Part shown: one piece after another, positions 6,047-63,103 of the stretch
How positions within the stretch are numbered: the first letter of the stretch is position 1
How the letters are laid out: each line of letters starts with the position of its first letter
From: Minisyncoccia bacterium
Lineage (GTDB): Bacteria > Patescibacteriota > Minisyncoccia > Phycocordibacterales > GWA1-40-21
Direction: 5' to 3'
DNA: 64,000 nucleotides
Assembly: GCA_049287185.1 (NCBI GenBank)
Contig: JBAQFI010000004.1
Location: 8,125 to 72,124 of the forward strand
Translations under genes and position numbers: made by a program
The notes under the pieces: model-generated
The model's database searches: none
What the model was told of the DNA's origin: nothing
Seen by the model: the letters and a program-made list of their open reading frames with translations, nothing else

Positions 6047-6269
6047 AAATAAAATTCACACGCATGGTGTATATTTTAATAATGAATTTCATTAACCACT
6101 TGAAATAAGTAATTTTTTCTTGTGTATATTGTAAATAAATATTTTTTTAAAAAAACTATGATAGAATGCTCGGGTAATTATTAAGGATTTTATTAACTTG
6201 CCCGAAGAAATTTCATTCTTACGAAATTTGACGGGTATAATCAACCCGCAAAAATTGATGTCTGACTGG

Positions 6270-6305
6270 ATCCCCGCCTGCGCGGGGACGACAATCAGAA
6301 TTGTC
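6270..6305. repeat. REP-like tandem hairpins (family A variant)
   Basis: tccccgc-ctgc-gcgggga followed by cgacaat-cag-a-attgtcg. Same two-hairpin module recurs at 56778-56813 and 56877-56911. Confidence 0.6.
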
Positions 6306-6328
6306 GACTTTACCGGGTAAACAAAACA

Positions 6329-16036: not shown

Positions 16037-16048
16037 ATAGTATTTTTT

Positions 16049-16130
16049 CTGTCATTCCCGCGCAGGCGGGAATCCAGGATTAATTGCAATATTTAGAAGA
16101 TCTGGATTCCCGCCTGCGCGGGAATGACAG
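16049..16130. repeat. REP-like element: perfect 29-bp inverted duplication of the family A palindrome
   Basis: ctgtcattcccgcgcaggcgggaatccag (16049-16077) is the exact reverse complement of ctggattcccgcctgcgcgggaatgacag (16102-16130). Each arm is itself palindromic around cccgc-NNNN-gcggg. Confidence 0.8.
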
Positions 16131-16174
16131 AAAGTTATATTTCTAGCTTTTGAGTCATTTTTGATATATATTTA

Positions 16175-26113: not shown

Positions 26114-26147
26114 TACCTTTTTTCTGTCATTCCCGCCTGCGCGGGAA
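26114..26147. repeat. REP-like palindrome (family A)
   Basis: tgtcattcccgc-ctgc-gcgggaatgaca: perfect 12-bp stem, same core as 16049-16130. Confidence 0.8.
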
Positions 26148-26391
26148 TGACAAACAGGGAACAATGTAACTCAAGGCAATATATTGGTATTTCTCCATTT
26201 ATCCACACTTTGTCTTGAATATTTTTATTTTAGTTGTGGTATAATTATTTCACTGACTAATACCCCAAGAGGGTGGCTGGTCGATCCGGTTTTCCGGCAG
26301 TCATAGTCAAGGAAAATTTGCTAGCTTCTCCAAGCTAGACAAAAGTTTTTTAATTAAAAAATTTTTAACAATTAATCGTTCTCTAATTTCA

Positions 26392-28242: not shown

Positions 28243-28335
28243 CGTCATTGCGAGGGTGTACTCACCCGTGGCAATCCAGGATTTTTTTGAATAATAAGAT
28301 GGATTGCCACGTCGGCAGACCTCCTCGCAATGACG
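28243..28335. repeat. REP-like nested inverted repeat (family B) overlapping the start of a minor pilin gene
   Basis: Outer arms cgtcattgcgagg / cctcgcaatgacg; inner arms gtggcaatcc / ggattgccac; central AT-rich spacer. gtcatt...aatgac ends resemble family A. Confidence 0.7.
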
Positions 28336-38016: not shown

Positions 38017-38157
38017 ACTTCCAATAAAAACGCTAAAGACGCATCTCCTCAAGGGTGCGTCTTTTTTAATTATTAAAGATTGAAAAAATTTAAGAAATAG
38101 GCTATTATCATCACGTACCAAATTACTGATTTTATATTAGTAAAACTGCCGTTGTAG

Positions 38158-38206
38158 CTGTCTTGGTAGCTCGATAAGTCGCACGCCGTTGTAGCTGTCT
38201 TGGTAG
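38158..38206 (+). repeat. two tandem partial copies of the tRNA-Thr 5' end
   Basis: gccgttgtagctgtcttggtag at 38158 and again at 38185, versus the genuine 5' end gccgttgtagctcagttggtag at 38224. Each copy is followed by ~..gtcg(a)..cac. Confidence 0.6.
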
Positions 38207-38223
38207 ATAAAGAAGTCGATCAC

Positions 38224-38299
38224 GCCGTTGTAGCTCAGTTGGTAGAGCACGTCATTGGTAATGACGAGGTCACCAGTTCAATCCTGGTCAACGGCTCCA
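38224..38299 (+). tRNA. tRNA-Thr (GGU), CCA encoded
   Basis: GCCGUUG/CAACGGC acceptor, D-arm GCUC-AGUUGGUA-GAGC, anticodon arm CGUCA-uuGGUaa-UGACG, T-arm CACCA-GUUCAAU-CCUGG... discriminator U, CCA. Confidence 0.85.
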
Positions 38300-38344
38300 A
38301 AAATAAAATCGCTCAATAAGCGATTTTATTTTTGGAGCCGTTGA
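38288..38344. terminator. 26-bp perfect inverted repeat that includes the last 12 nt of tRNA-Thr (terminator / inverted tRNA 3'-end copy)
   Basis: tcaacggctccaaaaataaaatcgct (38288-38313), caata loop, then agcgattttatttttggagccgttga (38319-38344), the exact reverse complement. Followed by hairpin gtatgcaaat-tt-atttgcatac and ccaggattgaa (reverse complement of the T-loop region). Confidence 0.7.
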
Positions 38345-38539
38345 AGTATGCAAATTTATTTGCATACGTCCAGGATTGAAAGGCACAGCGATGTTTTTCG
38401 AACCACCAGCGAGAAAAACCGCGAGCCGGGGTCGCGAGCACCTACATATTTTGACAGAATATAATTCTGTCAAAATATTTAGTGACTCGAGACCAATCAG
38501 ACGAGTCTTCGAGTCTCCTGGTCAACGTTTTATCTGTTG

Positions 38540-38612
38540 AGCCAAGGGCGAGGATCGAACTCGCGACCTGCTGATTACGAATCAGCTGCTCTACCAACTG
38601 AGCTACCTTGGC
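38540..38612 (-). tRNA. tRNA-Thr (CGU)
   Basis: Minus-strand read GCCAAGG-UA-GCUC-AGUUGGUA-GAGC-A-GCUGA-uuCGUaa-UCAGC-AGGUC-GCGAG-UUCGAUC-CUCGC-CCUUGGC-U. Confidence 0.85.
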
Positions 38613-38856
38613 GGTCGTGACTGATTAGAATAATAAACAATAACACCAGTTATTGCAAAGAAAAATTGCAAAAAACATATATTAATTATATTATCAAATT
38701 CTACCGCCCCTGGAATGATAGTTTTTTGTCAGGTTCAAGTCCCTTTGTTATTTTTTATGGCTGTGCCTAAGAGGAGTTTAACTCTTCTGAACAAAATCAC
38801 TTCCTTTCCAGGGGTGGTTTTTTGTTGAGATATAATTTGCTATACTCATAATCAAC

Positions 38857-56757: not shown

Positions 56758-56777
56758 TATTGTTTATCCGATTAAAT

Positions 56778-56911
56778 CGACAATCCTGATTGTCGTCCCC
56801 GCGTAGGCAGGGCTCCAGTCAGTTTGTCTTCTTTTTTTCGGGTTGATTATCTATTAATATTTTTTAAGATTGGATCGTCTCCTGTGCGGGGACGATAATT
56901 AGAATTGTCGA
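56778..56911. repeat. pair of REP-like two-hairpin modules in opposite order flanking a 63-bp AT-rich spacer
   Basis: 56778-56813 cgacaat-cctg-attgtcg + tccccgcgtaggcaggg. 56877-56911 cgtctcc-tgtgc-ggggacg + ataatt-ag-aattgtcg. Same module as 6270-6305. The second copy abuts the stop codon of the SBP gene. Confidence 0.6.
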
Positions 56912-60639: not shown

Positions 60640-61536
60640 ATGGCTACTCTTTACACTCAGCAAAATAAAAACGTTAACAAAACTTGGCTCCTGATGGGGG
60701 CGATGTTAGTTTTGATTGTGGCCATCGGTTTTTTCTTGAGTCAGTATTATAGCGATCCAGGTATTCTGTACGTCGCTATTATTTTTAGTTTACTTTTAAA
60801 TTTTGCGAGTTACTGGTGGTCCGCCAAAATTGTTTTAGGATTGTACCGGGCAAGACCAGCAAGTATAGAGACGGAACATAATCTAATTAATATTGTGGAA
60901 AATTTGGCTATTACCGCCGGACTCCCAATACCCAAAATTTATGTCATTCCTGATCCAGCTCCCAATGCTTTTGCTACTGGTCGCAATGCTAAAAATGCGG
61001 TTGTGGCTGTAACTTCTGGCTTATTGGTGATGTTAAATAAAACCGAACTTGAGGGAGTGATAGCTCACGAGATGTCTCACATTGGTAACCGGGATATTTT
61101 ACTCAACACTGTAGTGGTTGTTCTAGTTGGGTCATTGGCCATTCTTTCTGACATTTTTTTACGCAGTACATTTTTTGGTTCTCGAAGTAATAATGACAAA
61201 GGTGGGGGAATAATCATGATCATTGGTTTAATATTAATGATCCTGTCACCAATTATCGCTCAAATGATTCAACTTGCTATTTCTCGCAAACGTGAATTTT
61301 TGGCTGATGCTTCCGGAGCTCTACTTACTCGTTATCCCGAAGGTTTGGCCGGCGCCCTACAGAAAATTTCGTCTTTTCCCGGACAAATGAAAATGGCCAA
61401 CAATGCCACCGCTCATTTATTTATCTCCAGTCCTTTTGGAAAAGCTGGCAATAAAATATCCAATCTTTTTATGACGCATCCACCGGTCGAGGCTAGAATT
61501 AAAGCCTTGCTGGGAGATCGTGAATATGAAAAATAA
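60640..61536 (+). CDS. htpX: HtpX-like M48 zinc metalloprotease
   Basis: HEMSHI (HExxH) in VIAHEMSHIGNRD, downstream Glu (REFLADASGA), 4 TM. Confidence 0.85.
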   Translation: MATLYTQQNKNVNKTWLLMGAMLVLIVAIGFFLSQYYSDPGILYVAIIFSLLLNFASYWWSAKIVLGLYRARPASIETEHNLINIVENLAITAGLPIPKIYVIPDPAPNAFATGRNAKNAVVAVTSGLLVMLNKTELEGVIAHEMSHIGNRDILLNTVVVVLVGSLAILSDIFLRSTFFGSRSNNDKGGGIIMIIGLILMILSPIIAQMIQLAISRKREFLADASGALLTRYPEGLAGALQKISSFPGQMKMANNATAHLFISSPFGKAGNKISNLFMTHPPVEARIKALLGDREYEK

Positions 61537-62188
61537 AATACTATACATTTGGGGTGAAATAGTAGATTTTGTTTTAGCAAAAAAGGAAAATGTGAGTGCT
61601 TTTCAAGTACCACGTCCAAGATATATCACCAAAATAACTTTTTTTGACAAAATTAATGCGGCTACCGCACTAAAACTTTTTCCCATAGATGTTAAACCAA
61701 ATCATCTAACAGTTTTTCGTTTTTTAATGACCCCAGTGGTTCTTATCGTTTTACTTTTAGATTATAAAGTTTTAGGTTTAGTTCTTTTTATAATTACGGC
61801 TTATTCAGATTCTCTAGATGGTTCAATGGCTCGCACCAGAAATAAAATTACCGACTGGGGTATTGTTTTTGACCCTTTTGCTGATAAGTTGCTCATCGGC
61901 AGTGTAGGTTTTTTGGTTATTACTCAATATTTGAATTTTTATATCGCACTAACTATCGTTTTCTTGGAATTAGCGCTAATTATTTCTTCATATTTACGTT
62001 TTAAAGGGAGAGTTATTCCAGCCAAGACGACTGGTAAAATAAAAATGTTTTTACAATGTTTGGGTATTATTTTTATTCTTTTCTATATGGTAATTGGGGA
62101 TCCATGGCTGCTACCGGCTGCCACCTATACACTTTATTTATCAATTTTATTTTCTATTTTAAGTTTGACGGTTTATCGGTCAGTTTAG
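61520..62188 (+). CDS. CDP-alcohol phosphatidyltransferase family protein
   Basis: DGSMARTRNKITDWGIVFDPFADKL fits D-G-x2-A-R-x8-G-x3-D-x3-D. 5-6 TM. Confidence 0.75.
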   Translation: MNMKNKILYIWGEIVDFVLAKKENVSAFQVPRPRYITKITFFDKINAATALKLFPIDVKPNHLTVFRFLMTPVVLIVLLLDYKVLGLVLFIITAYSDSLDGSMARTRNKITDWGIVFDPFADKLLIGSVGFLVITQYLNFYIALTIVFLELALIISSYLRFKGRVIPAKTTGKIKMFLQCLGIIFILFYMVIGDPWLLPAATYTLYLSILFSILSLTVYRSV

Positions 62189-62210
62189 TGTTTTATTTTG
62201 CAAAATAATC

Positions 62211-62286
62211 TGTCATTACTACGCAGACAGGAATGACAACGGGCCACGCATCGTGAGGCAAGGCCTCACGATGAGTTGCCTCACGA
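62211..62286. repeat. REP cluster upstream of the transposase: family A-like inverted repeat + family C 25-nt palindrome + extra half-site
   Basis: ctgtcatt...aatgaca (62211-62240). catcgtgaggc-aag-gcctcacgatg (62249-62273). gcctcacgatg again at 62276-62286. Confidence 0.7.
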
Positions 62287-62311
62287 TGTAGAAAAAGATA
62301 ATATTATTCAC

Positions 62312-62977
62312 ATGTCTGCCAGATCAAAAAAATTTGTCTCAGGTGAGTTCTATCACATTTATAACAGAGGAAACAGTAAACAGAAAATTTTTCATGATGA
62401 GGAAGATTATCAGAGGTTTACTTCTTTACTCTTTCTGTCAAATAAGATGAAAAAATTCGATATTTTCGATCTTCGAAAATATAAAAATAAAAATACATAC
62501 AAGCATGAAAACAATAAGCCGATTGTAAGTATTGGATCGTACTGTCTAATGCCAAATCATTTTCATATTCTGATTACTCAAGCTGAAAGTGAAGAGAATG
62601 GTATCAGTAAATTCATGCATAAATTGGGCACTGCCTATTCAATGTATTATAATAAAAAATATAAGAGAACGGGTGGATTATTCGAAGGTAAATTTAAATC
62701 GCAGTATATTGAGACAGATCGACACCTAAAATATTTATTCTCATATATTCATTTAAACCCGATAAAACTTATTCAAAAAGATTGGAAAGAAAAGGGAATT
62801 GTAAATAGGAAGGAAGCTATTAGTTACCTAAATAACTACTTATTTTCAAGCTATATAGATTTTATGGGGGAAAAAAGGTTTGAAAATGAAATCATAGACA
62901 CCTGGGCGTTTCCAAAATATTTTCCTAAAAAAGAATCATTTATTAAAGAGACTTTAAATTGGTTAAGTTATAAATAG
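62312..62977 (+). CDS. IS200/IS605-family Y1 (HUH) transposase, REP-associated tyrosine transposase (RAYT)-like
   Basis: From ATG MSARSKKFVSGEFYHIYNRGN. HUH motif CLMPNHFHILI, catalytic Tyr helix YLFSYIHLNPIK, GGLFEGKFKS. The track's TTG start at 62276 lies inside the palindrome. Confidence 0.75.
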   Translation: MSARSKKFVSGEFYHIYNRGNSKQKIFHDEEDYQRFTSLLFLSNKMKKFDIFDLRKYKNKNTYKHENNKPIVSIGSYCLMPNHFHILITQAESEENGISKFMHKLGTAYSMYYNKKYKRTGGLFEGKFKSQYIETDRHLKYLFSYIHLNPIKLIQKDWKEKGIVNRKEAISYLNNYLFSSYIDFMGEKRFENEIIDTWAFPKYFPKKESFIKETLNWLSYK

Positions 62978-63005
62978 TTTACTAGATTTTTATAGTTGTT
63001 TAAAA

Positions 63006-63030
63006 CATCGTGAGGCAAGGCCTCACGATG
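63006..63030. repeat. family C palindrome, identical copy downstream of the transposase
   Basis: catcgtgaggcaaggcctcacgatg, identical to 62249-62273. Confidence 0.8.
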
Positions 63031-63103
63031 TTTTAAATTTAACGATATATTGCTTAATTTTGATTGATAATTAAACCATTGATTGGTATAATAATCAGTA
63101 ATA

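Follow-up and report, generated by a model that had tools for sequence, protein, structure and literature searches.

A hairpin-flanked class 2 Y1 transposase gene in a Minisyncoccia bacterium: a likely self-contained REPtron/TIRtron-like unit

Background

Y1 enzymes of the RAYT type have been cited as the first transposases of bacteria to be domesticated (PMC8266576). Among the TnpA-Y1 proteins, subclass 2.1 is characterized by the motifs NH[YF]H and Y[IV]HLNP and by a length of about 238 amino acids (Quentin et al. 2018, PMC6006769); it is equivalent to RAYT Group 1 (Bertels et al. 2017, PMC5581495) and to the TIRYT proteins of TIRtrons (Di Nocera et al. 2013, PMC3733652). Quentin et al. report no structures resembling repetitive extragenic palindromes (REPs) for this subclass (PMC6006769), and Di Nocera et al. 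describe for the TIRYT genes only flanking terminal inverted repeats (TIRs), which share the sequence GGGGWSAS (PMC3733652). The proteins of the insertion sequence (IS) IS200, which form subclass 1.1, have the motifs DH[VI]H and Y[IV]ENQ and consist of the core only, about 150 amino acids (PMC6006769). Here we describe a 64,000 nt stretch of contig JBAQFI010000004.1 of a Minisyncoccia bacterium (the window; all coordinates are window positions), in which a single gene for a Y1/HUH tyrosine transposase homolog stands between two identical 25-nt palindromes. We consider it likely that the locus is a self-contained REPtron/TIRtron-like unit belonging to a Patescibacteria-wide clade of class 2 TnpA-Y1 (RAYT-type) HUH proteins. 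No description of this clade was found in the searchable literature.

Results

The palindromes are cognate to the Y1 gene

Sequence reading and pattern search yielded two copies of the perfect 25-nt palindrome CATCGTGAGGC-AAG-GCCTCACGATG (= CATCGTGAGGCAAGGCCTCACGATG), one on each side of the Y1 gene and both where an initial annotation of the sequence had placed them (Table 1). A third copy was not found in the 64 kb, even at 3 mismatches, there were 0 matches in 100 shuffles, and the 11-nt core AGGCAAGRCCT was confined within the window to the two palindromes. Folding of single-stranded DNA gave z = -5.1 for the region of the upstream hairpin and z = -9.3 for the downstream hairpin, the stem of which is lengthened to 18 bp by the flanking sequences TTTAAAA/TTTTAAA. 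The downstream hairpin probably doubles as a terminator; with 4 T's instead of 5, it was not called by the terminator scan. Palindromic stems make the flanks formally inverted repeats, but by the orientation of the loops, which is the same in the two hairpins, those of the window are a direct pair. Compared with most homologs, in which the upstream loop is TCTTG or CTT, the loop of the upstream hairpin in the window is flipped.

The flanking palindromes are cognate to the gene, and the hairpin co-evolves with the gene across the clade. Loci of relatives (n = 96) encoding proteins 45-92% identical to the window Y1 protein were collected, and in the 76 loci with sufficient flank the 120 nt upstream of the gene were compared with the region around the stop codon. 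The two flanks shared an exact word of at least 15 nt in 56 of these 76 loci (median 20 nt versus 8 nt in mismatched locus pairs), and in every case the shared word was a perfect hairpin. The upstream hairpin of the relatives is located at a median distance of 26 nt before the ATG, the downstream one at the stop codon or overlapping it. Covariation was studied in 65 loci, each represented by one hairpin with a perfect stem of at least 7 bp and GG/CC beside the loop. Two G-C pairs are fixed by this selection criterion; the A-T pair below them, which lies outside the criterion, was invariant, so that the top of the stem is always A-G-G/C-C-T. In contrast to this constancy, stem positions 6-9 take all four Watson-Crick pair types, and the lower stem and the loop vary between genomes and loci. 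Paralogs with 38-52% identity that share one locus are each flanked on both sides by a hairpin of their own, which is the rule described for tnpA-REP genes.

A conserved GT[AG]G tag at the foot of the hairpin was found neither in the window nor in 25 relatives, and no conserved target or guide tetranucleotide was detected outside the hairpins. Some loci contain doublets or arrays of the hairpin that resemble REPINs. At many loci one hairpin arm with about 4 nt is tandemly duplicated directly beside the hairpin (window positions 62263-62288; downstream in L009, L133 and L163; on both sides in L123; upstream in L118 and, in three copies, in L139). Slippage or rejoining by the enzyme may account for these duplications.

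A subclade at 45-52% identity carries, at nt +151 to +167 of the Y1 gene and before the HUH strand, an additional cognate hairpin (L136, L140, L142, L152, L153, L159-L162, L168, L171, L181, L190 and L191). It encodes peptides of the xQGxxL type and changes in step with the two flanking copies. The window gene has an AT-rich perfect palindrome (Table 1) at the codon position that the in-frame hairpin occupies in these more distant homologs. This palindrome has no sequence relation to the flanking hairpin and gives a weak signal, and its significance is uncertain.

The Y1 gene encodes a class 2 TnpA-Y1 protein

The start of the coding sequence was set by the N-termini of the homologs, and it coincides with the ATG chosen in the initial annotation. 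The protein contains the HUH motif N82-H83-F84-H85-I-L-I (HUH, residues 83-85) and the sequence Y145-I-H-L-N149-P150, both of which had also been recognized before. H83, H85 and N149 showed no variation among 43 relatives, of which at least 90% have Y145. The profile searches proposed in the initial annotation gave a divided result: Pfam Y1_Tnp (PF01797) matched residues 68-147 with 33 bits against a gathering cutoff of 23, whereas NCBIfam NF047646 (REP_Tyr_transpos) reached 46.4 bits and remained below its cutoff of 80. The absence of a second open reading frame (tnpB) from the unit was confirmed, and no Y1 paralog was found in the 64-kb window.

In the AlphaFold (AF2) model (pLDDT 80.6, pTM 0.80) the catalytic tyrosine, Y145, is on the helix formed by residues 137-153, with the polar N149 four residues further on. 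The best Foldseek match in the PDB was 4ER8, the E. coli TnpA-REP protein bound to a REP hairpin (E 4.9e-5), followed by the TnpA proteins of IS608 and ISDra2; the top of the list consisted of 4ER8, 2VIC, 2XMA and 2A6O, with TM-scores of 0.50-0.58 normalised to the target. The protein thus has a predicted TnpA-type fold, and it belongs to the Y1 HUH superfamily. A phmmer search of the PDB with the single protein gave no match and one with the family profile only weak matches; by sequence, the family is remote from every solved structure. Residues from about 155 to 221 form a C-terminal helical domain specific to the clade, in which Pfam detected no DnaA_C/HTH domain (Bac_DnaA_C, HTH_23, HTH_28).

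By its motifs and length, the protein fits the subclass 2.1 type (TIRYT) of TnpA-Y1 class 2, with which it probably groups; it is neither IS200 nor the classical E. coli RayT. Two proteins served as comparators in hhalign: for the family profile the probability was 99% (E 2e-18) against a plasmid protein of P. aeruginosa that bears the 2.1 signature, and 38% against E. coli RayT. A search of protein collections returned more than 7,900 cluster representatives, and all the named ones were from Patescibacteria (Nomurabacteria, Paceibacterota, Minisyncoccia). A sequence identical to the window protein was among them, from a metagenome-assembled Minisyncoccia genome at NCBI.

The unit is present or absent as one block

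Two related loci, L201 and L202, have the same gene order as the window (SBP, SecG, LemA, HtpX, CDP-alcohol phosphatidyltransferase and a Gly-rich protein), and their CDP-alcohol phosphatidyltransferase is 80% identical in amino acid sequence to that of the window. The spacer at the place of the unit is 110 nt long in L201/L202 and 916 nt in the window, and the short spacer contains neither a Y1 gene nor an AGG...CCT cognate hairpin. Between related genomes the unit is therefore present or absent as one block, i.e. it is a discrete insertion or deletion. Homology with the empty site restarts at about 63040-63058; this is just past the downstream hairpin and coincides with the conserved promoter, TTGATA-17-TATAAT, of the gene that follows. 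On the left side the edge probably lies between 62238, the end of the preceding hairpin, and 62249. An independent Logan contig (L203), which spans the upstream junction, is 100% identical to window positions 61063-62576.

Another Logan contig, L204 (= window 61333-62240), stops exactly at the presumed left edge, through which L203 continues. The end of L204 could reflect an assembly break at the hairpin or heterogeneity of the population for the unit. The promoter to the right of the unit (TTGATA-17-TATAAT with an upstream TG, 63064-63092) is a strong one; it serves the downstream gene for the Gly-rich secreted protein and is conserved in L201.

Inheritance of the gene and copy number of the hairpin

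The Y1 gene is inherited together with its neighbours, and the purifying selection acting on it is as strong as that on MurJ. Two loci, L001 and L197, share the TPR-MurJ-Y1 context, and the 25-nt hairpin is unchanged between them. The following ratios of nonsynonymous to synonymous divergence (dN/dS) were obtained for this pair (with dS in parentheses): 0.064 (0.70) for Y1, 0.074 (0.78) for MurJ and 0.117 (0.79) for TPR. Taking into account the similar dS values and the low dN/dS, Y1 has diverged alongside these neighbours under strong constraint. In more distant lineages the Y1 gene is found beside different neighbours. No near-identical duplicates of the gene were present in 784 kb of homolog loci. 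PHROGs contained no family for the Y1 protein, viral contigs yielded one distant relative, and plasmids only relatives below 34% identity; by these comparisons the unit is not phage- or plasmid-borne.

In the window, the palindrome is not a dispersed high-copy REP. For the source genome the copies were counted in the 64-kb window, with 0 extra copies in about 62 kb. A scan of 185,579 species-representative genomes, which do not include the window's own genome, gave 104 matches to the palindrome, mostly chance matches with other loops in unrelated phyla. The same hairpin with an AAG/CTT loop accounted for 8 matches, all in the candidate phyla radiation (CPR) and with 1-2 exact copies per genome; one of the 8 adjoins a Y1 homolog, and some others resemble terminators with an A run and a T run. 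In 347 kb flanking the homologs, 11 extra cognate hairpins were found (0.03 per kb), some of them intragenic and in frame. The cognate hairpins therefore do spread, at a low level.

Three Nomurabacteria GW2011 loci (L076, L080 and L111) contain a solo copy of exactly the hairpin of the window, TCGTGAGGC-AAG/CTT-GCCTCACGA, between A and T runs. No Y1 gene is present in the surrounding block, and these hairpins resemble bidirectional terminators. Elsewhere, cognate hairpins bracket small neighbouring genes, which according to the translated reading frames encode a methyltransferase, a PemK/MazF-like toxin and a RelB/YafQ-like pair, and one cognate hairpin is located in frame inside ligA (the sites are L005 5130-5976, L137 1-620, L159 140-860 and L189 6269-6290). 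The bracketed neighbours and the ligA copy hint at cassette-like mobilisation or at REP-like spread.

A half-site next to the upstream hairpin carries a candidate -35 box

An extra half-site beside the upstream hairpin had been noted in the initial annotation; it is present, but its 3' arm is shifted by 2 nt relative to the positions assigned to it there (62276-62286; Table 1). The sequence formed by loop and 3' arm of the upstream hairpin is TCTTGCCT in most of the close relatives, and TTGCCT thereby comes to lie 17-18 nt before the -10 box. In the window the flipped upstream hairpin (loop AAG) has no TTG; the half-site reads agTTGCCTCACGATG and restores TTGCCT, at a spacing of 17 nt from TAATAT. 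The presence of the half-site can be explained by this loss, since it supplies the -35 sequence that the flipped hairpin lacks.

Of 81 homolog loci, 62 have a hexamer that matches TATAAT in at least five of the six positions and is no more than 25 nt away from the ATG; the modal gap to the ATG is 6 nt (30 loci). Loci with such a hexamer had no Shine-Dalgarno sequence. A -10 box just before the ATG and no Shine-Dalgarno sequence is the geometry of a leaderless mRNA, and a leaderless-mRNA promoter is accordingly predicted for the Y1 gene. The position of the -35 box in the half-site suggests autoregulation of Y1. No -10 box at the right spacing for an antisense promoter from the downstream hairpin was seen by eye.

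Other hairpins and repeats of the window

Most other hairpins of the window are unique terminator-like stems. Repeated hairpins of the form TGTCATTCCCGC-GCAG-GCGGGAAT-CCAG, some of them inverted doublets, and an additional CGTCATTGCGAGG... pair were also observed (16046-16133, 26118-26157, 6262-6324, 56760-56822, 56868-56911; 28243-28335). CGTC/TGTC-tagged REPs of the Neisseria dRS3 type have been reported without a dedicated transposase (PMC3733652), and the repeated hairpins of the window match this class, here in a Patescibacteria genome. The gtcatt...aatgac element mentioned in the initial annotation was found again, at 62212-62237, as a degenerate hairpin of this kind; it is a neighbour just outside the unit and not a part of it. 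The Y1 gene had also been proposed there as a plausible source of the REP-like hairpins dispersed through the window. This proposal was rejected for the family A and B hairpins, because their sequences are unrelated to the cognate hairpin and CGTC/TGTC REPs are not enriched near members of the Y1 family (0.063 versus 0.043 per kb).

The Rfam matches of the window were all tRNAs. The tRNA at 38224-38296 is directly preceded and overlapped by a tandem array of three copies, all partial, of the 5' half of a tRNA (38148-38257), and two tRNA genes form an 86-nt inverted pair (38223-38308 / 38528-38613). These repeats, between 38148 and 38613, may be the scar of integration or recombination at a tRNA.

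Table 1. Features of the Y1 locus and its surroundings (window positions)
Feature	Position	Strand	Remarks
Degenerate TGTC-tagged REP-like hairpin (ctGTCATTactacgcagacaggAATGACa)	62210..62238		71% identical to family-A repeat
Whole unit: hairpin, promoter, Y1 gene, hairpin	62240..63040	+	about 790 bp, approximate
Upstream cognate hairpin	62249..62273		11-bp perfect stem, loop AAG
Half-site: extra loop-proximal bases and 3' arm (TTGCCTCACGATG)	62276..62288	+	3' arm GCCTCACGATG at 62278-62288
Candidate -35 box TTGCCT	62276-62281	+	putative; in half-site
Candidate -10 box TAATAT	62299..62304	+	putative; 7 nt before ATG
Y1/HUH tyrosine transposase homolog	62312..62977	+	ATG 62312 to TAG 62977, 221 aa
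AT-rich perfect palindrome within Y1 coding sequence	62460..62482		10-bp stem, z = -2.5
Downstream cognate hairpin	62999..63037		18-bp stem; core 63006-63030 = upstream copy

Discussion

If the locus is a self-contained REPtron/TIRtron-like unit, as we think likely, its way of working can be outlined as follows. To judge from TnpA-REP and IS608 TnpA, the Y1 protein would bind the hairpins when these are folded in single-stranded DNA, and would cut and rejoin DNA at the feet of the hairpins by means of Tyr145 and a metal bound by the HUH motif. The same chemistry might occasionally move the whole unit and, at low frequency, might seed solo or intragenic copies of the hairpin. With the -35 sequence TTGCCT carried by the upstream hairpin or half-site, binding of the protein or extrusion of the hairpin could repress the Y1 gene, and the downstream hairpin may act as a terminator as well.

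Several points weigh against this interpretation. The cleavage chemistry assigned to the clade is an analogy with the two enzymes just named. The hairpins used for covariation were picked as perfect stems, which makes the percentage of pairing partly circular; the informative points are that the A-T pair does not vary and that, in a given locus, the upstream copy is identical to the downstream one. Loop orientation in the clade is inverted in 27 pairs and direct in 15, those of the window being among the direct ones, therefore no single IS200-like or REPtron-like geometry holds. The empty site could have arisen by deletion in the relative and not by insertion in the window. The promoter matches the consensus in 8 of 12 positions, which is weak, and it was not called by the promoter scan. 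Finally, the genome-wide copy number of the palindrome is extrapolated from the 64-kb window.

It appears unlikely that the unit is an active autonomous IS of the IS200 type, encoding only tnpA, with the hairpins as its left and right ends and transposing by single-strand peel-and-paste. The unit is as compact as IS200 and is bounded by hairpins in the same manner, but its protein carries the class 2 motifs NHFH and YIHLNP, not DH[VI]H and Y[IV]ENQ, and is 221 amino acids long with an extra C-terminal domain. The direct orientation of the hairpins in the window agrees with that of IS200/IS605 ends, whereas inverted hairpins prevail in the clade, and outside the hairpins there is no conserved target motif. 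Presence or absence of the unit between syntenic genomes and the change of genomic neighbours between lineages would also be expected from such an element; they have to be set against the lack of a second copy in the window and of near-identical copies in the homolog loci, and against a Y1 locus that shows the dS of its neighbours and a dN/dS typical of constraint. Clustering with canonical, multi-copy IS200 was one of the two outcomes that the initial annotation had named as contradicting its RAYT/REPtron interpretation, and it was not observed. The other, a 25-nt palindrome occurring nowhere else, is what was found within the window.

A classical REPtron (TnpA-REP with REPs, subclasses 2.2, 2.4, 2.5, 2.7 and 2.8), i.e. 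a domesticated RayT with cognate REPs present genome-wide in high copy number and including the other hairpins of the window, seems quite improbable. The part of the initial RAYT/REPtron interpretation that stands is the single-copy Y1 gene between cognate palindromes, and 4ER8 (TnpA-REP) is the best structural match; the palindrome is, however, not repetitive, the GT[AG]G tag is missing, the REP_Tyr_transpos profile stays below its cutoff and the alignment to E. coli RayT has a low probability. The REPIN-like doublets and arrays beside some homologs and the few dispersed and intragenic copies would be in line with REPs, but no extra copies occur in approximately 62 kb of the window's genome, in each CPR species representative that has the hairpin with the same loop there are 1-2 exact copies, and the other hairpins of the window are unrelated in sequence. 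That the hairpins are an ordinary promoter/operator and an intrinsic terminator, unconnected to the DNA chemistry of the enzyme, is highly improbable: the overlap of the upstream hairpin or half-site with a -35-like TTGCCT at the correct spacing to the -10 box, the A and T runs beside the downstream hairpin and the terminator-like solo copies in other Nomurabacteria agree with it, but it leaves unexplained that the copies are identical within a locus and different between loci and between co-resident paralogs, that one subclade has a third, in-frame copy inside the gene, and that hairpins and gene are gained and lost jointly.

Beyond self-maintenance as a REPtron/TIRtron-like unit, the Y1 enzyme and its hairpins might constitute a conserved single-stranded DNA recombination system of the ultra-small Patescibacteria, although we regard this as improbable. 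In one version, neighbouring genes would be mobilised as cassettes bounded by hairpins; methyltransferase and toxin-antitoxin genes are bracketed by cognate hairpins in homolog loci, and ligA has one in frame. In the other, the enzyme would have a host function at hairpins formed during replication. Such a function, if true, would explain the housekeeping-level purifying selection on more than 8,000 protein clusters in genomes that tend otherwise to lose genes that are not essential.

For the questions of the host function of RAYTs and of the way in which REPs spread, the clade offers a minimal case: genomes of less than 1 Mb with almost no repeats, a candidate promoter built into the hairpin, and a unit whose insertion or deletion is clear from the comparison of related genomes. 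With one gene and two co-evolving hairpins per locus, the clade amounts to a natural table of protein-hairpin specificities. What is known of the nature of RAYT-type enzymes is not altered by the finding.

Like IS200, the unit is about 0.7-0.8 kb long, has tnpA only, perfect subterminal hairpins at both ends and a Y1/HUH fold; unlike the window gene, IS200 has DH[VI]H and Y..NQ, a protein of ~150 amino acids and multiple near-identical copies. With the E. coli RayT REPtron (subclass 2.2; 4ER8; PMC3479197, PMC8266576) the unit shares the closest structural similarity and the arrangement of a single-copy, housekeeping-like gene between cognate palindromes that co-evolve with the protein. It differs from this system by the absence of a GTAG tag, of a bulged stem and of a genome-wide, high-copy population of REPs, and in that the unit itself is present in some genomes and absent from others, whereas no mobility has been reported for tnpA-REP. 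The relatives with a third in-frame cognate hairpin in the coding sequence (the subclade at 45-52% identity) recall the subclass 2.4 RAYTs (PMC6006769), but their in-gene hairpin is at another position, where the window gene has the unrelated AT-rich palindrome. The comparison with subclass 2.1 shows differences too: the hhalign alignment ends at residue 153 and leaves the C-terminal domain of the clade unaligned, the 'W' motif of the window protein is FE and not WE or FQ, and the flanks of the window are short perfect hairpins with the invariant AGG/CCT top in place of GGGGWSAS. On the other side, NHFH, YIHLNP and 221 amino acids correspond to the motifs, the length of about 220-240 amino acids and the C-terminal extension of subclass 2.1, and the low copy number is also that of this subclass; by loop orientation, inverted repeats flank the gene in 27 relatives and direct ones in 15. 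For subclass 2.1 / Group 1, in which no REP-like structures (PMC6006769) and only TIRs (PMC3733652) had been described, the cognate hairpins of the clade fill a gap.

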